Source: a virus
Length of the DNA stretch: 64,000 nt
Direction: 5' to 3' (one strand)
IMG/VR virus record: IMGVR_UViG_3300022689_000178
Location: 12,825-76,824 of that record
Positions 4,171 to 64,000 of this stretch are shown piece by piece. A model generated the notes under the pieces. That model searched no databases, was not told the DNA's origin, and saw only the letters and a program-made list of their open reading frames with translations. The position numbers and the translations under genes are program-made. Each line of letters begins with the position of its first letter. The first letter of the stretch is position 1.

Positions 4171-4223
4171 TGGTAGCAGTTAGTATAACACACCGTTTTA
4201 ATGTGTGTTATACATTGTTAGCT
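4171..4223 (+). repeat. attC-like site A1 (left core degenerate, TGGTAGC)
   Basis: Stem GTATAACACAC/GTGTGTTATAC, right core GTTAGCT. Confidence 0.7.
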
Positions 4224-4266: not shown

Positions 4267-5250
4267 ATGATAGTAAAAGAAAAAATAGGGAGGGGGTTTT
4301 TATATTTTATGGACGTATTGGAGGGTTTAAAATTACTACTTGACAATAGCCAAGATTTAATAATAGTTGACCCACCTTATTACAAGACTGTAAATGAGAA
4401 ATGGGATAAACAATGGAAGACCGAAAAAGAATATTTAGACTGGTGTAGATTATGGTTTGCTGAATGCGTAAGAGTACTGAAAGACACAGGTAGTTTTTAT
4501 TGCTATGGAAACTTTGACATACTGAGCAAACAAAAAGTATTGATATTTGATGATGCGCTGAACTTTAGGCAAAACATTACATTAAACAAAGGATTGAAAA
4601 GTATTGCTGGAAGAACAAGCGACAAACTTAGAATGTTCCCGACTGCAAGTGAATACTTGGTGTTTTACACTAAACAAGAAATGTGGTTTGAAACACCCTT
4701 TTCAATTATTATGAAAAGACAAATGAAAGAAAAGGGATTAACTCAGATTGATATTTCTAAACTTATACTTTCACGAAATGGTAATTTAACTGGATGGGTG
4801 CATAATAAGATTAAGGGCATACAATTGCCAACAGCAGAGCAATGGAACAAAATATGCAATTTGTTTGAAATTAAAAATGAATATGATTTATTGTGTGAAA
4901 GCTACGAAGAACAAAGGTTTACTTTTAACCTACCAACAGGACAAACCGATGTTTGGGATTTTACGCCCGACAAAGTTAGATTTGGAAATAAGACACAGAA
5001 ACCACAAGACATAAGTAGAAGAATTATAAAAGCAAGTAGTAACGAAGAACAAAGTGTATTGATACCATTTGCAGGGAGTGGAAGTGAATGTGAAGCTTGC
5101 GAAGTATTGGGTAGAAATTGGACTGCGTTTGAGAATGACCAATTTAGCATTGACATTATACACGAACGATTTAAAAACCTTAAAGCTTTTGAAAAAAGCA
5201 AAGAGCGTGGGCTTTTTTCTTTTACGGATGAACAGAACAAAGCTGATTAA
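4267..5250 (+). CDS. DNA amino-methyltransferase (m6A/m4C, beta class) with inserted HTH; cassette-borne
   Basis: Motif IV DPPY near N-terminus, TQKP, and motif I PFAGSGS near C-terminus. Confidence 0.9.
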   Translation: MIVKEKIGRGFLYFMDVLEGLKLLLDNSQDLIIVDPPYYKTVNEKWDKQWKTEKEYLDWCRLWFAECVRVLKDTGSFYCYGNFDILSKQKVLIFDDALNFRQNITLNKGLKSIAGRTSDKLRMFPTASEYLVFYTKQEMWFETPFSIIMKRQMKEKGLTQIDISKLILSRNGNLTGWVHNKIKGIQLPTAEQWNKICNLFEIKNEYDLLCESYEEQRFTFNLPTGQTDVWDFTPDKVRFGNKTQKPQDISRRIIKASSNEEQSVLIPFAGSGSECEACEVLGRNWTAFENDQFSIDIIHERFKNLKAFEKSKERGLFSFTDEQNKAD

Positions 5251-5271
5251 ATGCACCAACGTAGCACTTGC

Positions 5272-5357
5272 AGCTAATGAAAATACACTTGCATAGTTTG
5301 ATTTTTTGTGTAGTGCAACGGAACAAAAAACAAATTATGTCAAGTGTAATGTTATGA
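5272..5357 (+). repeat. attC-like site A2 (left core AGCTAAT, mutated)
   Basis: Stem TACACTTGCATAGTTTG/CAAATTATGTCAAGTGTA with one extrahelical base; right core GTTATGA. Confidence 0.8.
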
Positions 5358-5398
5358 GTATTTTTATTTATTTTTCCGTTGTGCCATATAATATCAAA

Positions 5399-5623
5399 AT
5401 GAAAAATACAATAACGATAAATAATATAGAATTTGAAATAGGAACTATAAGTATAAATGAATTTGGCGGGCAAACAGTGTCCTCATTAATTGTTGGTGTT
5501 TATGCTGAAAACAAGGATCAGAATATATTTGTAAAACATAATGTATTCAACAGTACAATAAAAAACTTAGAATTATTGAAAGATATTTTAACCGTTTTAA
5601 CTACAAAAAAATATGATTTTTAA
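5399..5623 (+). CDS. Cassette hypothetical protein (likely start MKNTITIN, not 5306)
   Basis: ORF-track start lies inside attC A2; ATG at 5399 follows the AT-rich leader. Confidence 0.55.
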   Translation: MKNTITINNIEFEIGTISINEFGGQTVSSLIVGVYAENKDQNIFVKHNVFNSTIKNLELLKDILTVLTTKKYDF

Positions 5624-5684
5624 AACAGGTTTTTCAAATAAATTAATGTCGAAAAAGAAAATATAAACTTTTAAATAAATAAAA

Positions 5685-6029
5685 ATGGAAAGTATAAAAA
5701 TAGAAATTGATAGAAAAAACATTCTTGATATTGTAAATAATAAAGTGTCGGAAAATATTTTATCTTATATGGACAAAAATATGGAAGATATTAATAAAAG
5801 TATTGAGAAATATTTTAAGTTATCTTTTTTTCAGGATAAAAAAACACAGTTTGAAAATGCACTCGATTGGACAATTGAAGATGCTTTTAGAGAAGGAATA
5901 AAGACAGCTATGGAGGATTTAAAATTCAAAGAACTTATTGCCGAAAAAGCAAAAGAAATTTTAACAAATGATGATTTTATTAAAGAATTAGCTGTTGCAA
6001 AAGTCAAAAGTTCGCTTGGTTTACATTAA
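5685..6029 (+). CDS. Cassette hypothetical protein
   Basis: Stop abuts left core CCATAAC. Confidence 0.65.
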   Translation: MESIKIEIDRKNILDIVNNKVSENILSYMDKNMEDINKSIEKYFKLSFFQDKKTQFENALDWTIEDAFREGIKTAMEDLKFKELIAEKAKEILTNDDFIKELAVAKVKSSLGLH

Positions 6030-6158
6030 CCATAACGGCTACTTGTAAGAATAGTAGCAGAATTGAAACACGAATATTGAAATAATTACAAACTTAAATA
6101 CAATGGTAGCAGCTAAAAAGACCCTATAACCTGCTATTATTTTTACAAATTGTTATAG
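6030..6158 (+). repeat. attC-like site A3
   Basis: CCATAAC ... stem TTGTAAGAATAGTAGCAG/CTGCTATTATTTTTACAA ... GTTATAG. Confidence 0.8.
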
Positions 6159-6177
6159 GGCGTTTATTTTAAAAATT

Positions 6178-6375
6178 ATGATTGCAAAAAAAAAAGGAAT
6201 AGAAATATTTCACAAACATTGGGATGAAGGATTATCTGATAGACAAGCAAAGGAATGTGCCTTAATAAGTGTTGGTGAAATTATTAAAGAATATGACGAA
6301 GAAATATTGGAATCTAACGATGTATATCGACAGCAATATTGGATAGAAGTAAGGGATTATTTAAATGCCCTATAA
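6178..6375 (+). CDS. Cassette hypothetical protein (AKECALI.V.EI...YW.EV small phage family)
   Basis: Stop TAA lies inside left core; flanked by GTTATAGGGCGTTTA/TAAATGCCCTATAAC. Confidence 0.7.
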   Translation: MIAKKKGIEIFHKHWDEGLSDRQAKECALISVGEIIKEYDEEILESNDVYRQQYWIEVRDYLNAL

Positions 6376-6470
6376 CGACAGGGGTTGGAGGCGGTTTTTT
6401 GCTTTGCAATTTTGCGAAGTGAAACGAGCAAATGTAAAGTTTAAAACTGACTTCCAAACCTCTGTTAGCA
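6370..6470 (+). repeat. attC-like site A4
   Basis: CTATAAC ... GGGGTTGGAGGCGGTTTT/AAAACTGACTTCCAAACCTC ... GTTAGCA. Confidence 0.8.
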
Positions 6471-6519
6471 ACACTTTTTTTTATCTTATCGAAATACAAA
6501 CATTTTAAATATAAATATT

Positions 6520-6846
6520 ATGAATACAGAATTGTACGATAAAGCATGGGAATTACTTGAAAGAAAAGGCTTAAAACTTGGCGAAAGAATAATGGTAAGA
6601 AGTTGTTTTGCAGGTGCTTACAAAAATGATTATCCTTTCATTGCCGCTAAACATAAAAAAGGCGAAGTTGAATATTATCATTCTCAAATAAAAGAAATAA
6701 ACAATTTAATGTTTAAATCTAAAAATGAAGTAATAATGGCAAATGCTATTTATGAAAACACAAAAGAGAATTTCAATCAAAATGATTTTATTCAGCATTT
6801 AAAATTTACTTTTAGAATTTTGGGTGTTAGTAGCGACTGGTGTTAG
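6520..6846 (+). CDS. Cassette hypothetical protein
   Basis: Flanked by GTTAGCAAC/GTTGCTAAC. Confidence 0.7.
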   Translation: MNTELYDKAWELLERKGLKLGERIMVRSCFAGAYKNDYPFIAAKHKKGEVEYYHSQIKEINNLMFKSKNEVIMANAIYENTKENFNQNDFIQHLKFTFRILGVSSDWC

Positions 6847-6850
6847 TTGT

Positions 6851-6918
6851 TGCTAACGTAATTTGCTTTATTTCTGTTTTTGATGTATGAAAAAATTAAA
6901 TTAAAGCAAATGATATGA
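6851..6918 (+). repeat. attC-like site A5 (right core mutated, GATATGA)
   Basis: TGCTAAC ... ATTTGCTTTA/TAAAGCAAAT ... GATATGAGTATTTT; compare GTTATGAGTATTTT at 5351 and 62586. Confidence 0.65.
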
Positions 6919-9596: not shown

Positions 9597-9852
9597 GATT
9601 ATTCCAAAATGTTTTTCATTGATTATAGTATCAATGTTATCAGCAAATAAAGATAAAGAATATTGGATTGGAACATTAATAGCTAAAACAGATTATACTG
9701 ATTTTTATCAAGTAGATGGTATTGATATTTCGGATATTGTATATAGTTCATTGAGTCATGTAGAACAGGAGGCCAGAATATTAAAATTATTGACAGAAGA
9801 GGAGTATTTAAGTGTTAAAATTTATGGTTATGTGCAATTGCAAGAGTATTAA
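9571..9852 (+). CDS. Hypothetical protein
   Basis: Overlapping operon ORF. Confidence 0.5.
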   Translation: MISKQQIIKIIPKCFSLIIVSMLSANKDKEYWIGTLIAKTDYTDFYQVDGIDISDIVYSSLSHVEQEARILKLLTEEEYLSVKIYGYVQLQEY

Positions 9853-10096
9853 TAAATTTAAAGTTGGACAAAAAGTGATAGCTAAAAAATTAGCTTGGTC
9901 GGGAGATGGCAATCAAACACCATTTCATAAAATTGATGTTGAGGGTGAAATAACATCAATAAAAGGAATATCGGATAAACATAATAGTATGTATAAATAT
10001 GAATTTACTTGGCATAAAGGACGGATGTATACAAATGGAAATCCACATAATTCGGGTGAAATTACAGGCAAATTAATTCCGGCAAATAATAAATAG
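9812..10096 (+). CDS. Hypothetical protein (SH3/KOW-like FKVGQKV)
   Basis: ORF in operon. Confidence 0.5.
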   Translation: MLKFMVMCNCKSINKFKVGQKVIAKKLAWSGDGNQTPFHKIDVEGEITSIKGISDKHNSMYKYEFTWHKGRMYTNGNPHNSGEITGKLIPANNK

Positions 10097-20866: not shown

Positions 20867-20895
20867 AAAGCCTGTTATTAAAGACAGGCTTTTTT
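20867..20895 (+). terminator. Rho-independent terminator
   Basis: AAAGCCTGT-loop-ACAGGCTTTTT. Confidence 0.8.
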
Positions 20896-20896
20896 G

Positions 20897-20939
20897 TTTT
20901 GTGTTAAATAGATTTATTTATTTCACAAATTTATAATAT
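20897..20939 (+). promoter_or_regulatory. Repeated early-type promoter element, copy 1
   Basis: 43-bp TTTTGTGTTAAATAGATTTATTTATTTCACAAATTTATAATAT identical at 53131; near-identical at 21408. Confidence 0.7.
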
Positions 20940-21037
20940 AGTGCAATAAAATTATAAGAGTAACCCGAAAATCTTATATTAAATAGAGTAAGGTATTCGT
21001 TAAAGCTGTAAAACGAAGAAAAATAAACAGCGACATT

Positions 21038-21349: not shown

Positions 21350-21407
21350 AAGGAGGTTAAATAAATAAACAGTTTGTATCTTTTATTTTGTATAGACTGT
21401 TTATTTG

Positions 21408-21460
21408 TTTTATGTTAAATAGATTTATTTATTTAACAAATTTATATAATAGTGAAATAA
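21408..21460 (+). promoter_or_regulatory. Repeated early-type promoter element, copy 2
   Basis: TTTTATGTTAAATAGATTTATTTATTTAACAAATTTAT. Confidence 0.65.
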
Positions 21461-21525
21461 ATAAATTTATTAATCTTAAAATTATTATTATTATAAAAAA
21501 AAAAATTAAATGGGATGTTGAAGAA

Positions 21526-52977: not shown

Positions 52978-53129
52978 GAAACGGAAACGTTTCGGACGTT
53001 AAGGTGTTGGGATTTGTGTTTTTGTGTAATTTTCACAAATAGCATTTAACCGCCGTTTAGACTTAAAGAGTAATAGATATATGCCGGAGTGATAGTAATC
53101 GCCAAATGATATATTTATTGCTCTTTTTT
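52978..53129 (+). ncRNA. Candidate structured small RNA
   Basis: ORF-less; nested stems AAACGG/CCGTTT, GTTAAGGTGTT/AGCATTTAAC, ATTTGTG/CACAAAT; then long hairpin AAAGAGTAATAGATATAT/ATATATTTATTGCTCTTT plus T run. Confidence 0.45.
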
Positions 53130-53130
53130 A

Positions 53131-53173
53131 TTTTGTGTTAAATAGATTTATTTATTTCACAAATTTATAATAT
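53131..53173 (+). promoter_or_regulatory. Repeated early-type promoter element, copy 3
   Basis: Identical 43 bp to 20897-20939. Confidence 0.7.
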
Positions 53174-53203
53174 GGTGAAATATATAATTTAAAGATTAAA
53201 ATT

Positions 53204-53755
53204 ATGAAAGAAAATATTTTTAAAATAATCGTTAGTAACGAATATAAAGAAGTTACTACGATAGAAGACAATGAAATTAATTTTTCTTGGGGCGGAAACT
53301 CTATGAGCCGCAGCTCAGCGGTTGAAAGAACAAAAAAAGTCTTTGTAGGTGCAAGGATTAGCTTGTACCGAATAGAGGACGTAAAAGCCTCAAATTATGG
53401 CGGGTACTGGTCAAATGGGCTGACAAACATCATTGCTGACTATAAGCAAATGATGAAATTTAGCGAACTCTACGGAGCATCGCTTCCAGACCACGTAACA
53501 GCACAAGCGGTATTTTCAGAAAAAGCCGAATTCAGTTTTGTGATAGAAACTGAAGAGGAGGAGGAGGTAGATGTATTCTATGCTCAATATGAAAAAAATG
53601 ATGGAGAATGGTTTTTCTCTGACGATGAAGAGGTGAGGCTGATACCTCATAAGAGATTTTTCAAATATGCTTTCAAAGATTGCATATTAGAGAAAGTGTC
53701 GGATGATGATTTTTCATTTTATTCAGAAATGTTCTCAGAAAATATAAAGCTATGA
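53204..53755 (+). CDS. Hypothetical acidic protein (moron-like)
   Basis: Own promoter element and terminator at 53769-53800. Confidence 0.65.
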   Translation: MKENIFKIIVSNEYKEVTTIEDNEINFSWGGNSMSRSSAVERTKKVFVGARISLYRIEDVKASNYGGYWSNGLTNIIADYKQMMKFSELYGASLPDHVTAQAVFSEKAEFSFVIETEEEEEVDVFYAQYEKNDGEWFFSDDEEVRLIPHKRFFKYAFKDCILEKVSDDDFSFYSEMFSENIKL

Positions 53756-53855
53756 AAATAAAACTTTTAAAAGCTCTCGAACCGTATTCGGGGGCTTTTT
53801 GTTAGTAGTATATCATCACTTATTTATTTATTAATTATCAAAAAAAAACAGAAGT

Positions 53856-54641: not shown

Positions 54642-54675
54642 TTTCTACTGCGTTAAGGATGTAGCTTGCTATTGC

Positions 54676-54803
54676 CCTTAACGTACAAGTATATGGCAAG
54701 GTGGGTTTAAAGTACTGACCTATCGAGCCACAATAAACTTAATTTAAAGCACTAAAGTAGCGATTTGGAACGATGCCCCACTTTGCTATATACATTGTTA
54801 GGC
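54676..54803 (+). repeat. attC-like site B1
   Basis: CCTTAAC .. GTATATGGCAAGGTGGG/CCCACTTTGCTATATAC .. GTTAGGC. Confidence 0.85.
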
Positions 54804-54822
54804 ATCTGTAAATTTTACGATT

Positions 54823-55050
54823 ATGGAAAACGTACTAAGATTTGAATACGAAAAAGGTGTACAGAAAGTGTATCCTGCAAATTGGATGGTAAAGAACTGG
54901 ATATTCAAAGAAGATGAAAAAGACGAAGCAACACTTGCACACGCAATGGCTATTGTCGCAGAAAAGAACGGTATGAGTAGTAATGACCTACAACACCTTT
55001 TTCCTGCTGTACTAAGGATGCTTAAAAGTGATATTGATTGGGCTAAGTAA
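54823..55050 (+). CDS. Cassette hypothetical protein
   Basis: Between B1 and B2; extended flank match TAAATTTTAC/GTAAAATTTA. Confidence 0.7.
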   Translation: MENVLRFEYEKGVQKVYPANWMVKNWIFKEDEKDEATLAHAMAIVAEKNGMSSNDLQHLFPAVLRMLKSDIDWAK

Positions 55051-55060
55051 AATTTATTGC

Positions 55061-55189
55061 CCTTAACGGCTTGTATATGATTTTGCAGGCATTATGAGAG
55101 CCGAAACTTTGATTATCTACATACTTGAAACGAGAAATAAAAATTGAATTATAAACATAACTGCCTATAAATTATATACTTTGTTATAT
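55061..55189 (+). repeat. attC-like site B2
   Basis: CCTTAAC .. GTATATGATTTTGCAGGCA/TGCCTATAAATTATATAC .. GTTATAT. Confidence 0.85.
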
Positions 55190-55223
55190 GCTTTTATAGT
55201 GCGGTGGCAAAAACATAGAAACG

Positions 55224-55511
55224 ATGAAATTAATAATATGCTTAGAGTGTATGGATGTATTTAACCTAACTAAAGAAACTAAAACTTGTAAATGTGGAGA
55301 AAGTAGCGGTAAATACATAGATAACTTAAATGCAGAGATAAAAGGAAACTGTAAAGGTATCGGATTTGCAAATAGTAAATTTCAAATTGCTTACCAAATA
55401 CAAAAAATGGAAGATGAAGCACAAAAAGAAAAACCAAGTTGTTGTGATGGAGTGGAATTTACGGCTTTCTTTATTCCTGAAACTGCTACGAGTATAAAGC
55501 GTGTAAGCTAA
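55224..55511 (+). CDS. Cassette Cys-rich (zinc-binding) protein
   Basis: CLEC.D...CKCG; flanks GTTATATGC/GCATATAAC. Confidence 0.7.
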   Translation: MKLIICLECMDVFNLTKETKTCKCGESSGKYIDNLNAEIKGNCKGIGFANSKFQIAYQIQKMEDEAQKEKPSCCDGVEFTAFFIPETATSIKRVS

Positions 55512-55515
55512 TTGC

Positions 55516-55580
55516 ATATAACGGCAATGTACTTAAATAGTTGTGAGGCACGAACAATTATTTTAAGTGTAATGTTAAGG
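55516..55580 (+). repeat. attC-like site B3
   Basis: ATATAAC .. ACTTAAATAGTTGT-GAGGCACGA-ACAATTATTTTAAGT .. GTTAAGG; near-identical to B11. Confidence 0.85.
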
Positions 55581-55642
55581 GCTTTTATTTATTAATTTAT
55601 CGTGCTGTTAATTAGTAATTTATTCACATAAAAAATATTAAG

Positions 55643-56569
55643 ATGAAAAACACAAGTGTGAAAAAAAGAAGTATTAAAAGTTTAATGGTTGCAAGAAATG
55701 CACTTGCAAAACTTTCAAAAGAAGAAGTTTCAGAATTAGAAAGTCAAATTTACATAGATAAAAAAATCAGATGCGTTGATGCTGTTCACATTGACCAGAG
55801 TGGAAACGTAAGTGAAAGTGAAAGTTCTACGTGGTTCATTCCTGAAAACTTAGATTTTGACATCGAAGTTGGAGACACACTTGTCGTTCAACAGGTTGCC
55901 GGAATCGGGCTTGCTTTCGTGAAAGTCATTTCAGAAATCTACGAAATGACAAAAGAAGAACATGAATACAATCTCCATCCTTATTGTCCTATAATCTCAA
56001 ATTTTGGGCAGCGTTTAAATAATACGTTCACAGACGAACGTGACGGAACTGTTTATAAAACCGTCAAAATTGGCAACCAGATATGGATGGCTGAAAATAT
56101 GAGATATAAAACAAATAAAGGGTGTTTGGCTTATGATAACAAACGAAGCAATGTTGAAAAATACGGTTATTTATATACATGGAAAGCAGCCAAAAAAGTT
56201 TGCCCCGCAGGTTGGCATTTGCCAAGCGATGAAGAATGGAAAACCCTTGAAATGCATCTTGGTATGAGCCAAGCTGATGATAATGGATACCGTGGAACAG
56301 ATGAAGGTTCTAAACTGAAAAGCACAAGTGGATGGTATGATAATGGCAACGGAACTAACAAAAGTGGTTTTAATGCTTTGCCTGGTGGTTTTTGCTACTA
56401 CTACGATGGCACGTTCGTCTACGCTGGCAAGCGCGGCTACTGGTGGACGAGTACTCGAAACGAAAGTAAAGACGTATACTACCGCTTTCTGGGCTATGAC
56501 GGCGGCGGAGCGACCCGCTACTATTGGCACCGCAAGAATTTGTTCAGTGTCCGCGCGATAAAAGATTGA
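55643..56569 (+). CDS. Fib_succ_major (FISUMP, CLec-fold) domain protein with DGR-type variable C-terminus
   Basis: FTDERDG.VYKTVKIGNQIWMAEN, YG.LYTW, CPAGWHLPS..EW, SGFNALPGG, G.WW.ST, FSVR.IKD; last ~180 nt are GC-rich and full of NNC codons. Confidence 0.88.
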   Translation: MKNTSVKKRSIKSLMVARNALAKLSKEEVSELESQIYIDKKIRCVDAVHIDQSGNVSESESSTWFIPENLDFDIEVGDTLVVQQVAGIGLAFVKVISEIYEMTKEEHEYNLHPYCPIISNFGQRLNNTFTDERDGTVYKTVKIGNQIWMAENMRYKTNKGCLAYDNKRSNVEKYGYLYTWKAAKKVCPAGWHLPSDEEWKTLEMHLGMSQADDNGYRGTDEGSKLKSTSGWYDNGNGTNKSGFNALPGGFCYYYDGTFVYAGKRGYWWTSTRNESKDVYYRFLGYDGGGATRYYWHRKNLFSVRAIKD

Positions 56570-56702
56570 ACGTTTTGATGTTGCCAACCAGAACGACAAG
56601 AACCTCATTTTGCGTGCTATCGTACTTGCAAAATTCAGACTACACAAAGCATTATAAAAGAATATTTTAATTATTAATCTAAAAAATTAAAAAACATAAA
56701 TT

Positions 56703-57044
56703 ATGGGAACTACTAAAAAAATAGGAAACTGGAAAATTAGAGAAACTAATTATGGTAATATTATAAAAATAAATGACATAAGAATAATGTCATTTGAAGA
56801 ATTTGGAGGCGATTATGAAAACACGCACTATTCCTTCGATGAGGAGAAGTGCAATAAACTTGGAGTAAAATGCAGGTTCGTACCTTCAGATGAAACTCCC
56901 TCGCAGGTAATAAAAACCCTTGAGAAAGAAGGGGCTACTGTGTTAGGTACTACAAAATTTGGTTACAGCACTTGTAACTTCCGTACTCCACAATGCGACA
57001 GAAACCCGTTAGACGTCGTTCTCTATATTCACAGATCGGAGTAG
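56703..57044 (+). CDS. Hypothetical protein
   Basis: ORF track. Confidence 0.6.
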   Translation: MGTTKKIGNWKIRETNYGNIIKINDIRIMSFEEFGGDYENTHYSFDEEKCNKLGVKCRFVPSDETPSQVIKTLEKEGATVLGTTKFGYSTCNFRTPQCDRNPLDVVLYIHRSE

Positions 57045-57107
57045 AACAATCGGAAATGGAGGAAATTTAGTCTTAATTTCGTTATGTGTAGCGGTGTATT
57101 TCGTTGC

Positions 57108-57187
57108 ACATAACGACTACGGCTTTGTGCAGTGAGCGTCAGGATTTTTTGAGCGGTGGGAAAATTGCACCAAAGCCGCTGTTATGG
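57108..57187 (+). repeat. attC-like site B4 (preceded by ORF-less mini-cassette 57081-57114)
   Basis: ACATAAC .. CGGCTTTGTGCAGT/ATTGCACCAAAGCCG .. GTTATGG. Confidence 0.85.
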
Positions 57188-57249
57188 TTTTTATTAATCA
57201 TTTCAGCGTATAATTTTCAAAATATTAATCTTAAAAAAACTTAGGAATT

Positions 57250-57573
57250 ATGTATAACTATTATAAATTTATTCCAGAAATTGTAAAAATAGTTAATGAT
57301 AACAAAAGTTTCTCATTAACAGACGACAATATAGAAAAAGTACTTTCCTCATTGTCGAATGCGGCGGATTTAGAAACAGAATACCCGGGTAACGTAGAAA
57401 TGTGGGCTGGTTTTTTGCTGTTAGGGTATAGATTAGGACAAATAAACAGTCTTAACGAAATTAGTAATAAAGTTCCTTTAATTAAGGAAAATATAATCAA
57501 AACAGGAATGAAGGATTTAGCTGTTTGTTTAAAAACCGAATTCCCTGATTTGAATGTAGAGTATTCAGATTAA
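57250..57573 (+). CDS. Cassette hypothetical protein
   Basis: Flanks GTTATGGTT/AACCATAAC. Confidence 0.7.
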   Translation: MYNYYKFIPEIVKIVNDNKSFSLTDDNIEKVLSSLSNAADLETEYPGNVEMWAGFLLLGYRLGQINSLNEISNKVPLIKENIIKTGMKDLAVCLKTEFPDLNVEYSD

Positions 57574-57642
57574 CCATAACGGCATAGTGTTTAGGGAGTT
57601 TTGCCTTTTTCAGGCAAAATTACCTTAAACACTGTGTTACCC
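57574..57642 (+). repeat. attC-like site B5
   Basis: CCATAAC .. CATAGTGTTTAGGGAGTTTTGCC/GGCAAAATTACCTTAAACACTGTG .. GTTACCC. Confidence 0.88.
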
Positions 57643-57793
57643 ACCTTTTTTTTATTTCATCTGATTATCAGTACAATAAAAAATAAATAAAAAATAATTA
57701 CAATAATTGCAATCATATACAATAATCATACTTATCTTTGCGTTATATTAATACAAACAAAGTTTAATTATTCATTTATAAAAACAAGAAATT

Positions 57794-58114
57794 ATGTTAC
57801 ATTTAGAAAAAGCAATCACCGCAAAAGAAATTAGAAATTCAAATCTAACTGAAAATTGTGTGTTATCACATGATTTTCAAAATGGAATGTATTTTCTTTG
57901 TATAAATTCAGTGAGAAAATATAGTTTCAAATGTTCTTCTGACGTTACTAAGTCAGTTAACAAGATAAAAAAAATGGGTTTTGGTTTTGGAACACATGAA
58001 AAACAATTAACAGATGAAGAAGAGGGATTAATCCAAGCAACAAAAAACGGTGAAAATCCTTTTGCCTATTCTATTATTTGTGCAAACCCAAAACTAAATA
58101 AAATCGTAAAATGA
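57794..58114 (+). CDS. Cassette hypothetical protein (gene 1 of a two-gene cassette with its own promoter)
   Basis: TATCTTTG at 57733-57740; ATGA overlap with next gene. Confidence 0.65.
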   Translation: MLHLEKAITAKEIRNSNLTENCVLSHDFQNGMYFLCINSVRKYSFKCSSDVTKSVNKIKKMGFGFGTHEKQLTDEEEGLIQATKNGENPFAYSIICANPKLNKIVK

Positions 58115-58344
58115 AAAACGAAAACATATTAAAAGCTCTCGACTGTTTGTCGGGGGCTGCCTTTGCAAAGGCTGTTTGGAATATTGATTGGGTTGAATTG
58201 TCAAAAACAGAAAAGAACAGCTATAATCAAATGATTTTCCACCGGAGAAAAACCGGAGCTTTCAAACTACACGAAATAAATAGTATTAAAAGTTACTTGC
58301 AATCTAAAATAACGGACTTTGATGTCGTTTTAAATTGTGGGTAA
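58111..58344 (+). CDS. Cassette small HTH-like protein (gene 2)
   Basis: LSGAAFAKAVW ... FKLHEI..I..YL pattern; stop lies in left core. Confidence 0.55.
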   Translation: MKNENILKALDCLSGAAFAKAVWNIDWVELSKTEKNSYNQMIFHRRKTGAFKLHEINSIKSYLQSKITDFDVVLNCG

Positions 58345-58392
58345 CGAAAATGTAATAAAAGCGTTTTAATGCTTTTTAATACAATGTTATGG
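58339..58392 (+). repeat. attC-like site B6
   Basis: GGGTAAC .. TGTAATAAAAGCGTT/AATGCTTTTTAATACA .. GTTATGG. Confidence 0.85.
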
Positions 58393-58447
58393 TTTTTAAT
58401 CATTTCATTGTGTTAATTATCAAAATATTAACATTAAATAATATATA

Positions 58448-58897
58448 ATGAAACCATATAAGTATTTCAGTTCTCTACATAATTTATATGACGATAATTT
58501 CAAGTTACTGAAGAAGAACAGATTAAAAATAGAAAAAGAGGCAATAAAGTGGCTTTCTGGATTTGGCTATTCATTTGGAACACACAATGTAGGATGTAAC
58601 GATGATATAGTTTATTATTACACTACGGGGAGTCTATCCTTTTCAGTTAAAGGATTAGGTGATTATACGTTTAGATTTATAATTCAAATGTATCATTTTT
58701 GCAATTATAAAACTTCTTTTTTCATGGAAGGATATAAGTATGGAAAGAGAGTAAAATCAGGGGACAAATCAGGGAAATTGAGAGATGAAAATCCTTACGA
58801 TGATTTTCGTTATTACGAGAATATTAATTGGGATTGCGGTTACATATTAGGATTATCAGATTATACAATAGATAGTTTTCTGGATTTGTTTCATTAA
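58448..58897 (+). CDS. Cassette hypothetical protein
   Basis: Flanks GTTATGGTT/AACCATAAC. Confidence 0.7.
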   Translation: MKPYKYFSSLHNLYDDNFKLLKKNRLKIEKEAIKWLSGFGYSFGTHNVGCNDDIVYYYTTGSLSFSVKGLGDYTFRFIIQMYHFCNYKTSFFMEGYKYGKRVKSGDKSGKLRDENPYDDFRYYENINWDCGYILGLSDYTIDSFLDLFH

Positions 58898-58966
58898 CCA
58901 TAACGGCATAGTGTTTAGGGAGTTTGGGCTTTTTCTGCCTAAATTACCTTAAACACCATGTTAGCA
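58898..58966 (+). repeat. attC-like site B7 (near-copy of B5)
   Basis: Arms GTGTTTAGGGAGTTT/AAATTACCTTAAACAC identical to B5; right core GTTAGCA. Confidence 0.88.
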
Positions 58967-58996
58967 ACTCTTTTTCATCCAACAAACATAAAACAA

Positions 58997-59941
58997 ATGA
59001 CTGAAATACTACATACAGGCGATAATTTAGAGTATATGCAGACGCTACCAAGTGAAAGCATTGACTTAATTTATTCAGATATTTTATACGGTACAGGTCG
59101 CGATTTTGGTAATTATAAAGATATAAAAGCAAACCGTAAAGATGTAGAAGAGTTTTATATTCCACACATTAAAGAGATGCACCGTTTGTTAAAAAAAACA
59201 GGTAGTATTTATTTGCAAATGGATACGCGAATTAATCATTATATAAGGTTAATTTTGGAAAATATTTTTGGAGTAAAAAATTTTATAAATGAAATTGTTT
59301 GGAAAAAAAGGAATAATACAAATAACATAGAGACTAATTATTTTAACCTTAATCATGATTTAATTTTATGGTATTCAAAAAGCAAAAATTATATATTTAA
59401 TAATGCTTATTTGCCTTTGTCTTCCGAAACAATAAAAAGGTATAACAGGAAAGATGAAAATGGTTTCTATTGTTTACAACCTATTTATAACAAATCTGGC
59501 AATTATAATAAATACACTACTTTAACATTAAATGGTAAGGAATATAAAGGATTTTATTCTTGGACGCAAAAAACATTAGATAAAAGATTACAAGAAAACT
59601 ACATTGTTGAAGAAAATACAAATGAATACTTATGCTACCGAAAATATTTGCAGACTTCAAAAGGTTCTCAAATAAGCGATGTTTGGACTGATTTAATTGA
59701 AGGTAGTGGAATTAAAAGGGAATACCAAACTCAAAAATCTATTGAATTAATGTCCCGAATAATAAAAGCAAGCTCAAATGTTGGTGATGTTTGCGCTGAC
59801 TTCTTTTGCGGTTCGGGCAGTTTTGGAGTTGCAGCAAAAAAATTAAACAGAAACGTAATTTTAAACGACATAAATCCCGAAGCAATTAAATTAAGTCAAA
59901 AGCGGTTGAACGATGCTTGCGACTTATTTAATTGTTGCTAA
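58997..59941 (+). CDS. Cassette DNA amino-methyltransferase (beta class)
   Basis: GDNLEYM, IDLIYSDILY (variant motif IV), TQKS..L, DFFCGSGS. Confidence 0.85.
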   Translation: MTEILHTGDNLEYMQTLPSESIDLIYSDILYGTGRDFGNYKDIKANRKDVEEFYIPHIKEMHRLLKKTGSIYLQMDTRINHYIRLILENIFGVKNFINEIVWKKRNNTNNIETNYFNLNHDLILWYSKSKNYIFNNAYLPLSSETIKRYNRKDENGFYCLQPIYNKSGNYNKYTTLTLNGKEYKGFYSWTQKTLDKRLQENYIVEENTNEYLCYRKYLQTSKGSQISDVWTDLIEGSGIKREYQTQKSIELMSRIIKASSNVGDVCADFFCGSGSFGVAAKKLNRNVILNDINPEAIKLSQKRLNDACDLFNCC

Positions 59942-60064
59942 CGGCTGGCGGTATGCGCTGGCTGGGATTAAAAGCAGAAACTTTCAAAAACAGATAAACA
60001 ATGAATAAAATTACAGACAATAAAAATAGCACGAACCCCAGCTTGCGTATAACGCATGTTAGCG
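59936..60064 (+). repeat. attC-like site B8 (loop contains the ATG of the next ORF)
   Basis: TGCTAAC .. GCGGTATGCGCTGGCTGGG/CCCAGCTTGCGTATAACGC .. GTTAGCG. Confidence 0.85.
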
Positions 60065-60369
60065 GTTCGGCTTTAATCGCTAAGTTTATGAAAAATACTG
60101 GTAGAAACGCTTTGGTTAAAGAATTTCAAAAGATGCAAGGATTACCAGAAAAGGACTACTATAATAGTTGGGATTGGCTTATGCCGGTTTATCGTAAAAT
60201 ACGAGATATTATAAATGAGCGGTCAAAATATGATAAACATACAAGGACTGAATATGATTTACTTGAACTTGATGCACAGATGGCAATTTGCGAAGTGGAC
60301 ATTGAAAAGGCGTTTATTTCAATCGTAAAGTTTATTGAATGCTGGAATGTTTCCAAAGCTGACCGCTAA
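60001..60369 (+). CDS. Cassette protein (LIAxFM...SWDWLMPV phage family); start codon inside attC B8
   Basis: Family motif LIAKFM lies upstream of the first internal ATG. Confidence 0.7.
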   Translation: MNKITDNKNSTNPSLRITHVSGSALIAKFMKNTGRNALVKEFQKMQGLPEKDYYNSWDWLMPVYRKIRDIINERSKYDKHTRTEYDLLELDAQMAICEVDIEKAFISIVKFIECWNVSKADR

Positions 60370-60496
60370 CGTTGAGCATATGCGGTCGTTGCTGTTTTAA
60401 ATAGAATTACGAACTTTCAAAAACAGATGTAATATGGAAAAAGAGACTAAACAACAAATTGACTACACGGCAATGCCGTATGATGCATTGTTAGGT
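60364..60496 (+). repeat. attC-like site B9 (loop contains the ATG of the next ORF)
   Basis: CGCTAAC .. GCATATGCGGTCGTTGCTGT/ACGGCAATGCCGTATGATGC .. GTTAGGT. Confidence 0.85.
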
Positions 60497-60787
60497 GTAG
60501 TTGTTTCGGGCTGCAAGTTCAAATACTTCTCATATGACCATAAGAAAGCCATAGAAGAGTACTGCACAAGTGATGATTATAAAGACGTGCGTAAGTGGAT
60601 TTCTAATCCAAATAGCTATGAAATGCCTGATAAGCTGAAAGAAAAATATAAGACTGAAAGAATTGGTAAACTACGAGAAATACACTTTGCTCCAACGGGT
60701 AAAGCATATAAATTTAAAATAGGTGCTAAATATGCAAAAACATACGGGTTAGATGATTTTGGTGTAAAAGTATTCCCGTTGGTTTAA
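60434..60787 (+). CDS. Cassette hypothetical protein; start codon inside attC B9
   Basis: No in-frame ATG in the first ~44 codons after GTT. Confidence 0.65.
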   Translation: MEKETKQQIDYTAMPYDALLGVVVSGCKFKYFSYDHKKAIEEYCTSDDYKDVRKWISNPNSYEMPDKLKEKYKTERIGKLREIHFAPTGKAYKFKIGAKYAKTYGLDDFGVKVFPLV

Positions 60788-60791
60788 TTAC

Positions 60792-60844
60792 ACCTAACGA
60801 AAGTATTAAAAGCATTTTAATGCTTTTTAATACTTTCGTTATAC
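60792..60844 (+). repeat. attC-like site B10 (minimal, 53 bp)
   Basis: TAACGAAAGTATTAAAAGCATT-TT-AATGCTTTTTAATACTTTCGTTA, perfect except for one extra T. Confidence 0.9.
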
Positions 60845-60901
60845 CTGTTTTTTTATCGGTGTAACATTATCAAAATAAATATTAATCTAAAATATATAAT
60901 T

Positions 60902-61204
60902 ATGAAATTTGAAAAAGAAATCTTAAAAGCATTAGATGTGTCATTTCCGATGAATGGTGTAGAGTTTTCAAAGTGCGAAAAAATAGAGTATTTAATATCT
61001 GAGTTGCTCGAAAAACAACACGAAGCAACAAAAAAAGCGTGTGCCCAAAATGCTAAAATAAAACTATATAATGAAGATTTATCAGGAAAAGAAATAGATA
61101 TTTATGAAACTGATAATTATATCGAATGTGCAAAAGAAATGAATAGTTTTGCTGAAATATCAAAAAATAGTATTTTATCAGTTAATATGTCAGATGTTAG
61201 TTAG
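60902..61204 (+). CDS. Cassette hypothetical protein
   Basis: Flanks GTTATACCT/AGGCATAAC. Confidence 0.7.
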   Translation: MKFEKEILKALDVSFPMNGVEFSKCEKIEYLISELLEKQHEATKKACAQNAKIKLYNEDLSGKEIDIYETDNYIECAKEMNSFAEISKNSILSVNMSDVS

Positions 61205-61269
61205 GCATAACGAACATGCACTTGAAAAGTTGTGAGGCACGAACAATTATTTTAAGTGTAATGTTATAG
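61205..61269 (+). repeat. attC-like site B11 (near-copy of B3)
   Basis: AGTTGTGAGGCACGAACAATTATTTTAAGTGTAATGTTA shared with B3. Confidence 0.88.
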
Positions 61270-61310
61270 GTTTTATTATTCATTTATTCGTGTCGCAAAA
61301 TATTAAAGTT

Positions 61311-61712
61311 ATGTTCAAAACATTAAACAAAGTAGCTGGTTTTTTTGATAAAAACGTTGAATTGTCTAAAAAAGATTTATCTGATTGGTTCACTCCGCAA
61401 GGTATCAGGTGTTTGGAAAAAGATGGTTATATTGAAAATCAAATAACTAATCCCGATTTTGAAAATGTAACGATGGAAGTTGGAAAGATGTATTTCATTT
61501 CCTTCGGCGAAAATACTCAGTTGATTGTAAGGTTGAGAAAAAAAGATAGTGTCCATTATCATTTTACCTCTTGTTTGCATTATTGGAATGGTTTTGAAAG
61601 TTTCAAGTATTCTGATTATTGCCAGATTTCAGGCATTACAGAAATAAGAGAAGCTTCAAAGCCTGAAAAATTCAAATTATTTGAAATGGAAGTTGAACAC
61701 GGTATTATTTAG
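61311..61712 (+). CDS. Cassette hypothetical protein
   Basis: ATG at 61311 after leader. Confidence 0.65.
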   Translation: MFKTLNKVAGFFDKNVELSKKDLSDWFTPQGIRCLEKDGYIENQITNPDFENVTMEVGKMYFISFGENTQLIVRLRKKDSVHYHFTSCLHYWNGFESFKYSDYCQISGITEIREASKPEKFKLFEMEVEHGII

Positions 61713-61716
61713 TTAT

Positions 61717-61848
61717 CGATAACGTTGAGCATATGAAGCGTACAGGATTTATAAGCAGTAGCCTGTCCGGTACGTAAAATGACAAATAAAGGCACAACTG
61801 CAAAAACATGGCACAAACACCTGTATGCTTTATGATGCAGTGTTATAG
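61717..61848 (+). repeat. attC-like site B12
   Basis: CGATAAC .. GCATATGAAGCGTACAGG/CCTGTATGCTTTATGATGC .. GTTATAG. Confidence 0.85.
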
Positions 61849-61865
61849 CCAGTTAATTTAATATT

Positions 61866-62060
61866 ATGAAAGAAGTATCTAAATATGAGCGATGGGAGTT
61901 TGTTAAAGATAAAAATGTAACATATACCGCTTCCGGTGATTATCCATATACTGGATTATGGAAAGATAAGGGTGGGAATATTATAGCAAAAGATGTTCCA
62001 GTTGGTAAACACATTGGTGCAAATTCAGACAAATATAAACATTACATAGCCTCTGTTTAA
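61866..62060 (+). CDS. Cassette hypothetical protein
   Basis: Flanks GTTATAGCCAGTTAA/TTAATTGGCTATAAC. Confidence 0.7.
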   Translation: MKEVSKYERWEFVKDKNVTYTASGDYPYTGLWKDKGGNIIAKDVPVGKHIGANSDKYKHYIASV

Positions 62061-62064
62061 TTGG

Positions 62065-62155
62065 CTATAACGACAAGCATTGTAAACGTTTAATTTTGAG
62101 CGTTTGCAATGTGTGTCAGCAGAAAATTAAATGTTTAACAATGCCATGGTTATGC
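62065..62155 (+). repeat. attC-like site B13
   Basis: CTATAAC .. GCATTGTAAACGTTTAATTTT/AAAATTAAATGTTTAACAATGC .. GTTATGC. Confidence 0.85.
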
Positions 62156-62193
62156 TTATTTTTAATCATTTCATGGCGCAAAAATTAAAATAT

Positions 62194-62547
62194 ATGAAGG
62201 CTAAAATTTACATAAAAAATTACTTATCAGATTTTCAAAATAGGTGTTTTAATGAAATACCGATTGATGAAATAAAAACAAAATCAGGCGAATTAGCAGT
62301 TAATATACTTTCTGAATTTCACGAAATATGCAAAGCGCGTGGAATAAAAAAGGGTAGTACCGAAATAGCATTAGTAAATGTAATTAAGGAATTTAATCAT
62401 AAATGGAAGATTATTTGTTTCGGTGTTAATAATTTCTTTGAAAAAACTTTTGATATATCTGTTTTAAAAACAGAAGGTTTCCTGGAATTGTTTAAAGCGT
62501 CAGAGCACAAACTTGAATATCTTATTGACATGTATTGTATCAAGTAA
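62194..62547 (+). CDS. Cassette hypothetical protein
   Basis: Flanks GTTATGCTTA/TAAGCATAAC; start at 62173 or 62194. Confidence 0.65.
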   Translation: MKAKIYIKNYLSDFQNRCFNEIPIDEIKTKSGELAVNILSEFHEICKARGIKKGSTEIALVNVIKEFNHKWKIICFGVNNFFEKTFDISVLKTEGFLELFKASEHKLEYLIDMYCIK

Positions 62548-62592
62548 GCATAACGACAAGCGTTGTTAATGCACCCCAAAGCAATGTTATGA
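62548..62592 (+). repeat. attC-like site B14 (short, internally deleted or hybrid)
   Basis: Left arm TAACGACAAGC.TTGT as in B13, but right arm not complementary; 45 bp. Confidence 0.65.
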
Positions 62593-62655
62593 GTATTTTT
62601 TCTCATTTCGTTGCTTATACAAAAAATAAAGTATTCACTATTAAATCATTATCAA

Positions 62656-63015
62656 ATGCAAAATTCAGATTTTATAAAAATATTAACCGAAAACAACAGA
62701 TTATTACGCGAACATACTGCTATGAATTCTAAAAATGAAAAATTATCAAATAATTCAATACTCCAAATAAATGCTAACAATCAATTCATTGACAAATTAA
62801 AGGATTGCAAACTTCCTGAAATAAACGAATTTAAGGTCTCTAAAATAATTGCATCTGTTGACAGATATAAACATCCATTTAACACGATGAATATAAAGCA
62901 AATTGAAGATTATTTACATTTAAAGCTTCAATCGAATATAAAAAAGGATAATATCTTATTTCAAGAGCGTATCGGGTATATTGAAGCTATAATGCTACTT
63001 TGTGAGCTTATTTAG
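62656..63015 (+). CDS. Cassette hypothetical protein
   Basis: Flanks GTTATGAGTA/TACTCATAAC. Confidence 0.65.
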   Translation: MQNSDFIKILTENNRLLREHTAMNSKNEKLSNNSILQINANNQFIDKLKDCKLPEINEFKVSKIIASVDRYKHPFNTMNIKQIEDYLHLKLQSNIKKDNILFQERIGYIEAIMLLCELI

Positions 63016-63019
63016 TTAC

Positions 63020-63113
63020 TCATAACGGTTAAGTATTGCAACCGTTTTTAAACGCAATACGTAAATATTAACGCAACACTGTATTAAAAATGGTTTGCAA
63101 TACAGTGTTATAA
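63020..63113 (+). repeat. attC-like site B15
   Basis: TCATAAC .. GTATTGCAACCGTTTTTAA/TTAAAAATGGTTTGCAATAC .. GTTATAA. Confidence 0.88.
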
Positions 63114-63124
63114 ACTTAATTATT

Positions 63125-63307
63125 ATGAATACAATATATTTATTTTTAGGATTAGTTGCTTTTTTTATTCTTATTTATTTAATAACAAGAAATATTAAAT
63201 GCCCAAAATGTAAAAAAAAATCAGTTAAACACTCTCATACGGAAAGAATTGGAAATACGGACAAAGATGTTTATGAGTGTAGAAATTGTAACGAAAAATT
63301 TGTTTAA
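63125..63307 (+). CDS. Cassette membrane-anchored zinc-ribbon protein
   Basis: N-terminal TM helix, CPKC...CRNC. Confidence 0.65.
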   Translation: MNTIYLFLGLVAFFILIYLITRNIKCPKCKKKSVKHSHTERIGNTDKDVYECRNCNEKFV

Positions 63308-63308
63308 T

Positions 63309-63536
63309 ATGAAAAAATTAGACGAAAAAGGTTTTGTTTTTTTAGATGCGAATAAAAAACCTTATTGGGTAGCTATCAGATGTGGAAACCCAATGCTCGC
63401 ATATTGGAATAACGATGGTTGGGTTAATTTAAGACAGATTAATCAAACACAAATTTGGCAATATTATCAATATGTTATTTCAGAAGAAGAAGCTGAAATT
63501 TATCATAAAAAATATTTAGCTAATCATTGTTTATAA
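63309..63536 (+). CDS. Cassette hypothetical protein (second gene)
   Basis: Stop lies in left core GTTTATAAC. Confidence 0.6.
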   Translation: MKKLDEKGFVFLDANKKPYWVAIRCGNPMLAYWNNDGWVNLRQINQTQIWQYYQYVISEEEAEIYHKKYLANHCL

Positions 63537-63595
63537 CGATGGTTATAAGATTAAGCGATAGCGACCCGTAGGGTTAATTTTATAACGTGTTACCT
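63531..63595 (+). repeat. attC-like site B16
   Basis: TTATAAC .. GTTATAAGATTAA/TTAATTTTATAAC .. GTTACCT. Confidence 0.85.
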
Positions 63596-63655: not shown

Positions 63656-64000
63656 ATGTGGGATGGACAATATGCTTTTGAAAAAAGCATAATAATACAA
63701 GGTGATTGCCTTGAAAAAATGGAATTAATACCTGAGAAGAGTGTTGATTTTATTTGTTGTGATTTACCTTATGGAATGACAGCTCCGAAATGGGATGAAA
63801 TATTACCTGCTGATAAACTTTGGGAACAATATAATAGGATAATAGCAGAAAATGGAACAATTGCCCTATTTGCTTCACAACCATTTACAACCAAGCTAAT
63901 AAGTAGTAACGAGAAGGATTACAGGTATGTTTGGTATTGGGTGAAAAATCAAGCAACAAACTTCTTTCACGCAAAACGAATGCCAACAAGGAAGATTGAG
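63656..64000 (+). CDS. Cassette DNA amino-methyltransferase, N-terminal part (runs off the window); not in ORF track
   Basis: Hand translation MWDGQYAFEKSIIIQGDCLEKMELIPEKSVDFICCDLPYGMTAPKWD...FASQPFTTKLI.SN. Confidence 0.85.
   Translation, partial: MWDGQYAFEKSIIIQGDCLEKMELIPEKSVDFICCDLPYGMTAPKWDEILPADKLWEQYNRIIAENGTIALFASQPFTTKLISSNEKDYRYVWYWVKNQATNFFHAKRMPTRKIE

Follow-up and report, generated by a model that had tools for sequence, protein, structure and literature searches.

How one non-coding frame came to surround two different genes is the question raised by a locus in the IMG/VR virus contig IMGVR_UViG_3300022689_000178. The stretch that we analysed, here called the window, is 64,000 nucleotides (nt) long and covers bases 12825-76824 of this single 76,824-bp contig. 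It holds an integron-like array, in which open reading frames (ORFs) are separated by hairpins resembling the attC sites of integron cassettes, each opening with an AAC box and closing with a GTT box. Cassette A (57181-57642) and cassette C (58386-58966) have a leader and a hairpin in common around proteins that look unrelated, and from this and other near-copies an initial annotation had proposed that new cassettes are made by loading ORFs into a few standard leader-plus-attC frames. Our investigations point to another reading, to which we give a probability of about one half: A and C would be sister copies of one non-coding frame, the coding interior of which was replaced by recombination, inside an integron-like array of a tailed phage with Flavobacteriia-type hosts. 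A dedicated ORF-loading process does not appear to be needed to explain the pair.

We compared the two cassettes by local alignment, with 200 shuffles as the null (mean score 25.5, standard deviation 3.0, maximum 34). The 3' block (57569-57650 against 58893-58975) scored 114 and the 5' block, a 59-nt leader block (57180-57238 against 58385-58441), scored 64, which upholds the shared leader and attC-like hairpin, and the ORF interiors gave zero alignments above the shuffles. In a repeat search the 3' block was 87% identical over 83 nt, and its initial 33 nt, from the last codon through the 5' arm of the hairpin, are identical. Two differences in the apical stem of the hairpins are double changes that keep the pairing and are thus compensatory. 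Identity stops about 10 nt 5' of the ATG on one side and at the last codon on the other, and the parts in common include the paired end boxes GTTATGGTT and AACCATAAC. Leader, boxes and hairpin have diverged alike, by about 13-15%. The further repeats reported by the initial annotation were also recovered: its sites B3 and B11 are near-copies (55518-55604 against 61207-61292), as are B6 and B10 (58342 against 60795), B9 and B12 have CGnTAACGTTGAGCATATG in common, and a recurrent leader, AATG(T/A)TATGAGTATTTTT, stands at 5348, 6909 and 62583.

The leader is not private to A and C, which are simply its closest pair. The motif TTTTTAWTYATTTCA ... AAAATATTAA follows the GTTA box in about ten cassettes, and on the + strand the core TTTTTAWTYATTTCA occurs, in about ten copies, almost only directly after GTTA boxes. 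Array units show a hairpin, a T-run and a conserved leader, and a scan for sigma-70 consensus promoters and terminators found no enrichment over shuffles. Three stand-alone intergenic repeats (GTGTTAAATAGATTTATTTATTTCAC...TATAAT; 20890-20956, 21401-21467 and 53124-53190) carry the leader core with no hairpin, which would fit a role of the leader as one of the promoter classes of the phage.

The proteins inside these flanks are ORF A (107 amino acids, aa) and ORF C (149 aa). BLASTP aligned them with E = 0.49, and a profile of 27 relatives of ORF C returned ORF A with an hhalign probability of 0.2%. Neither has a Pfam or PHROG match. An exhaustive HMMER search gave ORF C a family of 32 representatives at E<=1e-3 (22 at E<=1e-10), all similar in length, and ORF C is therefore a real gene; the family alignment is too diverse for a pattern search. 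No relatives of ORF A or ORF C were found in viral contigs, a word-index protein search returned self matches only, tblastn against GenBank phages returned nothing, and no loci related to the ORF C family members P0006 and P0011 were found in genome, viral or metagenome contigs. In single-sequence AlphaFold 2 (AF2) models, ORF A is all-helical with seven helices (predicted local distance difference test, pLDDT, 60), and ORF C is a helix plus a beta-hairpin in an unreliable model (pLDDT 38) too poor for fold comparison; for ORF A a protein atlas offered only weak helical-repeat leads. Among 27 array ORFs (351 pairs), resemblance was confined to the three N6/N4 DNA methyltransferases. By these comparisons ORF A and ORF C are unrelated proteins and not diverged paralogues. 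The initial annotation had also judged them unrelated, and had named diverged paralogy beforehand as the outcome that would speak against its proposal; profile and BLASTP comparison gave no such relationship.

Simple duplication, followed by drift of the two paralogues past recognition, is accordingly a very improbable account of the pair. A weak, non-significant likeness over the first 18 residues (YKFIPEIVKIVNDN against YKYFSSLHNLYDDN) could be taken in its favour, but it would leave flanks 85-87% identical beside ORF DNA with similarity not above shuffles, and the proteins differ in length, in the profile comparison and in predicted secondary structure (all-helical against helix plus beta-hairpin, the C model being unreliable).

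The even divergence of the flanks also bears on a second alternative, in which two originally unrelated cassettes had their leaders and hairpins made alike by gene conversion between repeats 1.2-1.3 kb apart. Leaders and hairpins are multi-copy within the array and would be available as templates, and the identical 33 nt, from the stop codon through the 5' arm, followed by a differing remainder of the hairpin, could be a conversion tract. However, this scenario requires A and C to have exchanged at least two distinct tracts and both complementary end boxes, which flank a heterologous ORF, to have been converted together, and the similar divergence of leader and hairpin does not suggest different ages. 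We regard it as rather unlikely. Still less probable, in our view, is the separate capture of A and C from a homogeneous donor array, such as a large sedentary chromosomal integron, in which case the flanks would mark origin only. Several phage genera do have site types in common; nevertheless, in exact-pattern searches the A/C hairpin was absent from the viral and metagenome contigs searched and the A/C leader from the viral contigs searched, and a donor would shift the puzzle of one frame with two ORFs to another genome.

The frame shared by A and C belongs to a large array. We curated and folded 20 sites, in 5256-6918 and 54678-63595, two intervals where TAACG is enriched on the + strand, and the array totals at least 20. 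Each site opens with [A/T/C]TAACG, closes with GTTA, and usually overlaps a stop codon or lies within 15 nt of one. The sites, which separate the ORFs, fold as imperfect hairpins of 43-131 nt, all in the same direction and closed by AAC ... GTT. In 13 of 18 units the 5' GTT box (9-10 nt) is perfectly complementary to the AAC box 3' of the unit's own ORF, and in the remaining 5 the end boxes are mismatched. The adjacent GTT and AAC boxes of one hairpin match over just 4-6 nt, with a mean of 4.5 nt, and matches of at least 7 nt occur in just 3.8% of non-cognate pairs. In unit A, for example, AACCATAAC forms a complementary run of 9 with GTTATGGTT versus 4 with the physically adjacent GTTACCCAC; likewise, the methyltransferase unit after hairpin C ends in GTTGCTAAC, the complement of GTTAGCAAC at 58960 (run of 9). 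A unit must be circular for two such boxes to close a hairpin, which implies that units have travelled as circles and recombined site-specifically within the AAC/GTT core. This is the classical cassette signature, and the array is integron-like. We also considered that the hairpin body alone could be a small palindromic mobile element sitting in pre-existing palindromes; this was rejected, as the complementarity spans the ORF and not the adjacent boxes.

Most boxes (GTTATGG, GTTACCC, GTTATAG, GTTAGCA) break the core consensus RYYYAAC / GTTRRRY; GTTAGGT fits it in full, and for GTTAGGC and GTTAGCG the agreement is limited to the GTT side, because their cognate AAC boxes differ. Reuse of end boxes among the 20 units is above chance (ATGGTT twice, in A and C; AGCAAC twice, at 6464 and 58960; ATGAGT three times, at 5351, 6912 and 62586), and recurrent boxes come with their leaders. 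On the coding strand, the 5' arm of nearly every site carries 3-5 extra unpaired nt beside the AAC. Rfam at gathering thresholds matched no site. No match to the tyrosine recombinase family PF00589 or to the integron integrase TIGR02249 was found in the 76.8-kb contig, which is estimated to be 72% complete, nor any tyrosine recombinase in six complete related phages; neither the contig nor four related phages gave a match to a Y1 (HUH) transposase (PF01797) above cut-off, and no intI, attI or Pc was found in the contig.

Do leader and hairpin travel together as a rule? For 18 cassettes of the window (153 pairs), leaders, own hairpins and upstream hairpins were scored against shuffles. Six pairs are hairpin twins: a3/G (Z score 28), A/C (26), B/F (20), I/J (8), D/E (7) and E/H (5). 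Leader and own hairpin are both shared in a single pair of the 153, which is A/C (leader Z 12.8), and the other five twins have leader Z scores of 0.4 or less. A few standard leader-plus-attC frames are thus not the rule in this array, contrary to what had been proposed. Leaders resemble each other in step with the upstream hairpins (rho 0.24, P 0.003), not with the downstream hairpins of their own cassettes (rho 0.02). The similarity blocks of a3/G, B/F, I/J and I4/J begin at TAAC and extend 30-63 nt beyond the GTT into the next leader; with I1/a3/G included, the blocks begin at TAAC or in the 3' arm and extend 20-63 nt. That of B/F extends through the leader to the following ATG. Hairpin a5, which precedes ORF A, has a body unrelated to that of hairpin B, which precedes ORF C (Z_prev 0.3).

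Reuse of a frame around unrelated ORFs is real, and it recurs in related phages. In phage filifjonk9-1, gp021 and gp004 are preceded by a 163-nt block that starts at TAACG, takes in the hairpin, GTTATAAGAAG and the leader, and stops at the ATG; overall identity is 87%, and the final ~60 nt do not differ. A 22-nt downstream block, CGTAGnTATTTCTTATAAC after the stop codon, is also common to them, and the proteins (61 and 82 aa) are unrelated. In the same phage, gp012 and gp007 (L004 6343-6450 against 9819-9926) have in common the leader and the first 16 codons (MNTNKTQAEQLPQDAV) and are unrelated beyond; their fusion point lies inside the ORFs. Among 60 array ORFs of five phages, seven pairs have upstream similarity above every shuffle, and five of the seven precede unrelated proteins. 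The right-hand limit of identity, counted from the ATG, therefore varies from about -10 nt (A/C) through 0 (gp021/gp004) to +50 nt (gp012/gp007). The initial annotation had called for mapping the exact boundaries of the frame: these fall near the ORF edges in A/C, and the limit is not constant elsewhere. Variable limits of identity, together with mismatched end boxes, argue for recombinational mosaicism and not for the loading of whole ORFs into templates.

These observations define what can be kept of the original proposal, that cassettes are manufactured by placing ORFs into a few standard leader-plus-attC frames, with A and C as products of one template. Its descriptive part stands, as the ORFs are unrelated, the flanks of A and C are shared, and the pattern recurs in filifjonk9-1. 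It would also explain why A and C are alike in every non-coding part, including the paired end boxes, why the gp021/gp004 upstream block stops exactly at the ATG and the downstream block begins at the stop codon, and why end boxes are reused beyond chance; the ORF-less mini-units beside A (57084-57181) and at 54652-54797 could be read in the same way. But the full pattern occurs in one window pair, the limit of identity is not tied to ORF edges (it lies 50 nt within the ORF in gp012/gp007), the mismatched end boxes of 5 of the 18 units are what recombination within frames predicts, and neither an enzyme nor an intermediate was seen. To our knowledge, none is known that would load ORFs into frames. 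We hold template loading to be unlikely, though the least so of the alternatives to a duplicated frame with a replaced interior.

Which piece of DNA moves is best seen in sister phages of Incheonvirus and Muminvirus, which carry the same site types and provide the evidence on the junction. Polaribacter phages P12002L and P12002S are ~99% identical around their arrays; identity breaks directly after CAGGTAACG, where P12002S has one additional 845-nt unit between two TAACG boxes, consisting of a hairpin body, GTTACCTGG, a leader, a methyltransferase and TTGCTAACG, beyond which the two are identical again. Two more breaks of identity between them both lie at AACG. As a separate observation, the inserted methyltransferase unit of P12002S reuses the leader (GTTACCTGnCGAAGTGAACAG) of the preceding small-ORF unit (L001 4503-4566 against L002 6848-6904 and 7763-7826). 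In four Flavobacterium phages of Muminvirus, with shared blocks 99.6-100% identical, all of the at least 10 junctions, from at least 5 gain, loss or replacement events, fall within TAAC(GTT), and the partner sites have nothing in common beyond these 4-7 nt. Cellulophaga phi12:1 and P12002L have different upstream ORFs, behind which a single conserved block holds the hairpin, the GTT box, the leader and the start of the methyltransferase. In the related phages, almost all small ORFs and methyltransferases are followed by TAACG hairpins, with body types in common with the window.

Both candidate crossover points, TAAC and the position between G and TT in the GTT box (G/TT), would yield the observed own-box complementarity, and they differ in the ORF with which the hairpin is partnered. 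Since the recent junctions are all at TAAC, on its 5' side, the hairpin moves together with the gene that follows it; a G/TT crossover, with the hairpin moving alongside the upstream ORF, is not borne out in these sister phages. By homology with them, the mobile unit of the window would most likely be hairpin body, GTTA box, leader, ORF and inverse box, in that order. If it is led by the hairpin in this way, B5 and B7 (hairpins A and C) belong to the following units, those of ORFs 57794-58344 and of the methyltransferase, and the "chassis" of the initial annotation spans two mobile units.

Based on these results, a possible route to the A/C pair can be proposed. The frame would consist of the end box GTTATGGTT, a promoter-like leader and the complementary box AACCATAAC, followed by the hairpin. 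Units would be exchanged at TAAC on the coding strand, as the sister phages suggest, and hairpin bodies, leaders and end boxes would be small sequence families reused across units and phage genera. A duplication of a unit or of a junction would first put one frame before two ORFs, and recombination on the right-hand side of the leader, either illegitimate or at short homologies, would then swap the interior. The recombinase, not on the contig, would presumably be encoded by the host or by the 28% of the genome that is missing, or else belong to a kind not recognised.

Several points weigh against this account. No recombinase was identified in the contig or in the related phages searched, the ORF-replacing event was not observed, and no donor was found. 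We found no sister genome of the studied phage, so that the TAAC junction is carried over from other genera. Four similarity blocks (A/C, a1/a2, E/H and I2/C) cross the AAC box and about six cross the GTT box; neither box is therefore an absolute limit. On the coding strand the extra unpaired bases belong to the 5' arm, and canonical attC geometry predicts from them a bottom-strand exchange at G/TT; taken together, their placement and the TAAC junctions fit neither attC orientation cleanly. Finally, for A and C themselves the canonical unit (leader, ORF and downstream hairpin, with a crossover at G/TT) is the simplest description, because leader, boxes and hairpin are similarly diverged, as if from one copied canonical cassette. 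For these reasons (the missing sister genome, the blocks across both boxes and the geometry of the bulge) the hairpin-first unit is something that we infer for this phage.

A broader and more tentative possibility, which we favour less than the duplicated frame, is that virulent Flavobacteriia phages carry an integrase-less cassette system that mirrors integrons, with units made of hairpin, end box, own promoter leader, ORF and inverse box exchanged at TAAC, in which repeated frames (A/C, gp021/gp004) would be the footprint of a unit-building process. Confirmation of TAAC exchange and of frame reuse would make this a second, mirror-oriented kind of cassette biology, and also a route for phages to assemble anti-restriction methyltransferases and orphan genes. 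Should the frames be such a footprint, cassette genesis would be directly testable in a culturable lytic phage-host pair.

Part of this picture is established. Clusters of attC sites in phages, and similar attC sites with unrelated cargo, have already been published, and the array described here is a large phage example of that published kind of element. Integrase-less attC clusters (CALIN) with methyltransferase cargo have been reported in phages, including Polaribacter phage P12002L (Qi et al. 2023, PMC9892861). Like the present array, these have unidirectional ORFs, imperfect AAC/GTT hairpins, no integrase and methyltransferase cargo; a minimum of two predicted sites per cluster was reported for them, and the contig here has at least 20. 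P12002L_attC1 (TGCTAACGGCTACGG...CATTGTTAGGC) is of the same site type as the sites of the window and was the one site, of six, for which recombination with IntI1 failed; in P12002L, recombination with IntI1 succeeded at attC2, a site predicted on the opposite strand (PMC9892861). Leaders, matched end boxes and TAAC junctions are described here and are absent from that study.

The array also resembles sedentary chromosomal integrons, in which near-identical sites stand by unrelated cargo and the 5' end of a cassette complements its own inverse core, and it shares with them the question of cassette origin (PMC4889954). The mechanism that creates cassettes is unknown, and it has been suggested that similar attC sites could reflect local cassette creation (Cury et al. 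2016, PMC4889954). In contrast with sedentary integrons, no intI, attI or Pc was found, the boxes mostly break RYYYAAC/GTTRRRY, the extra unpaired bases sit on the opposite arm, about half of the units have their own promoter-like leader, and the exchange point in relatives is, on the coding strand, the box that precedes the hairpin on its 5' side. The promoter/stem-loop (PeSL) cassettes of T4-like phages (PMC2839356, PMC4122927) offer another parallel: a stem-loop and a promoter-like sequence between small accessory ORFs, elements that bound indels and replacements between sister phages, proposed circular intermediates, and conserved regulatory flanks around unrelated ORFs. Exchange of PeSL elements, however, is described as homologous recombination within a conserved motif, whereas the partners here have only TAAC(GTT), 4-7 nt, in common, and here each ORF has its own complementary end boxes. 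Single-strand transposition of the IS200/IS605 kind needs a Y1 (HUH) transposase, and none scored above cut-off.

The most interesting result, in our opinion, is that several genera of lytic Flavobacteriia phages combine a shared site family, exchange of units at TAAC, reuse of frames and no recognisable integrase. The initial annotation had expected the shared frames to bear on how cassettes are created. Nothing in our data reveals how they arise, and the A/C pair leaves that question unanswered. It could be approached in small lytic phages whose hosts (Flavobacterium, Polaribacter and Cellulophaga) can be cultured, and in which single units are gained and lost at a defined 4-nt core.

The contig itself is linear, has a G+C content of 27.8% and is 72% complete by CheckV estimate. 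Its genes include those for a large terminase, a portal, a major head protein and a helicase, and its DNA-level matches among GenBank phages are only the methyltransferase genes of Flavobacterium, Cellulophaga and Polaribacter phages; from these genes and methyltransferase matches, the contig belongs to a tailed phage, most likely with a host among the Flavobacteriia. A search for sister contigs via the methyltransferase found none. The three N6/N4 DNA methyltransferases are each one array unit (4267-5250, 58997-59941 and 63656-64000). Related phages have 2-5 methyltransferase units each, and the arrays resemble stores of anti-restriction genes. The features of the A-to-C locus are collected in the table; the two ORFs of the intervening unit B have no Pfam or PHROG family match.

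Table. Features of the locus from the hairpin before ORF A to the methyltransferase unit (window coordinates).
Feature	Position	Strand	Basis and remarks
Hairpin site a5 (ATAACG ... GTTATGG), 5' of ORF A	57110..57187	+	Curated and folded; GTT at 57181 opens the shared leader
Unit A 5' frame: end box GTTATGGTT and promoter-like leader (TTTTATTAATCATTTCA ... TCAAAATATTAA)	57181..57249	+	Best leader pair of 153, Z 12.8
ORF A, 107 aa, predicted all-helical	57250..57573	+	AF2 single-sequence model; no family match
Unit A inverse end box AACCATAAC, overlapping the stop codon	57572..57580	+	Perfect complement of GTTATGGTT at 57181
Hairpin A (= B5): ATAACGGCATAG ... GTTACCC, 5' arm with 3 extra unpaired nt	57576..57642	+	Twin of hairpin C, 87% identity
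Intervening unit B: end box GTTACCCAC, leader, ORFs 57794-58114 and 58111-58344, inverse box GTGGGTAAC	57636..58345	+	Run of 9
Hairpin B (= B6), twin of hairpin F at 60794-60844	58341..58392	+	Block 58342-58449 against 60795-60900
Unit C 5' frame: GTTATGGTT and leader	58386..58447	+	Alignment and pair scoring
ORF C, 149 aa, unnamed protein family	58448..58897	+	HMMER family; no Pfam match
Unit C inverse end box AACCATAAC	58896..58904	+	Run of 9 with GTTATGGTT at 58386
Hairpin C (= B7)	58900..58966	+	Its GTTAGCAAC opens the next unit
N6/N4 DNA methyltransferase unit after hairpin C	58997..59941	+	Pfam PF01555, E 9e-44

Some smaller observations complete the description of the array. Two ORF-less mini-units adjoin full units as "empty frames": one in 57049-57181, with 18 nt enclosed between GTTATGTG (57084) and CACATAAC (57114), and one in 54652-54803, with 16 nt enclosed between GTTAAGG (54652) and CCCTTAAC (54682) and a similar GTAGC..TATT core. 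A truncated copy of the 5' end of ORF 58111 (MKIKLLKALEPYSGAFC*; 53753-53806 against 58111-58165) follows ORF 53204-53755 with the same ATGA overlap of stop and start; it is also a terminator-like hairpin and looks like a relic of an earlier gene order. The long hairpins 59938-60064 and 60366-60496 have loops with a common AACTTTCAAAAACAGAT directly before an ATG, and ORFs 60001 and 60434 begin within the loop and read through the GTT box; P12002L offers a parallel in an annotated 50-aa ORF inside a loop (L001 4090-4297). The short hairpins have a conserved apical loop, (C)GTTTTAATG, at 58360-58372, 60812-60824 and 4188-4200 in the window, at 5850 and 6750 in L001 and at 8250 in L003; this loop is common to three phage genera, and a conserved loop sequence is missing in canonical attC sites. 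Finally, a degenerate site, TGAACG ... CAAAATTCAG, with TTC replacing GTT, lies at 56567-56650, after a gene with a Fib_succ_major domain (55643-56569), and may be a dead site that fuses two units.

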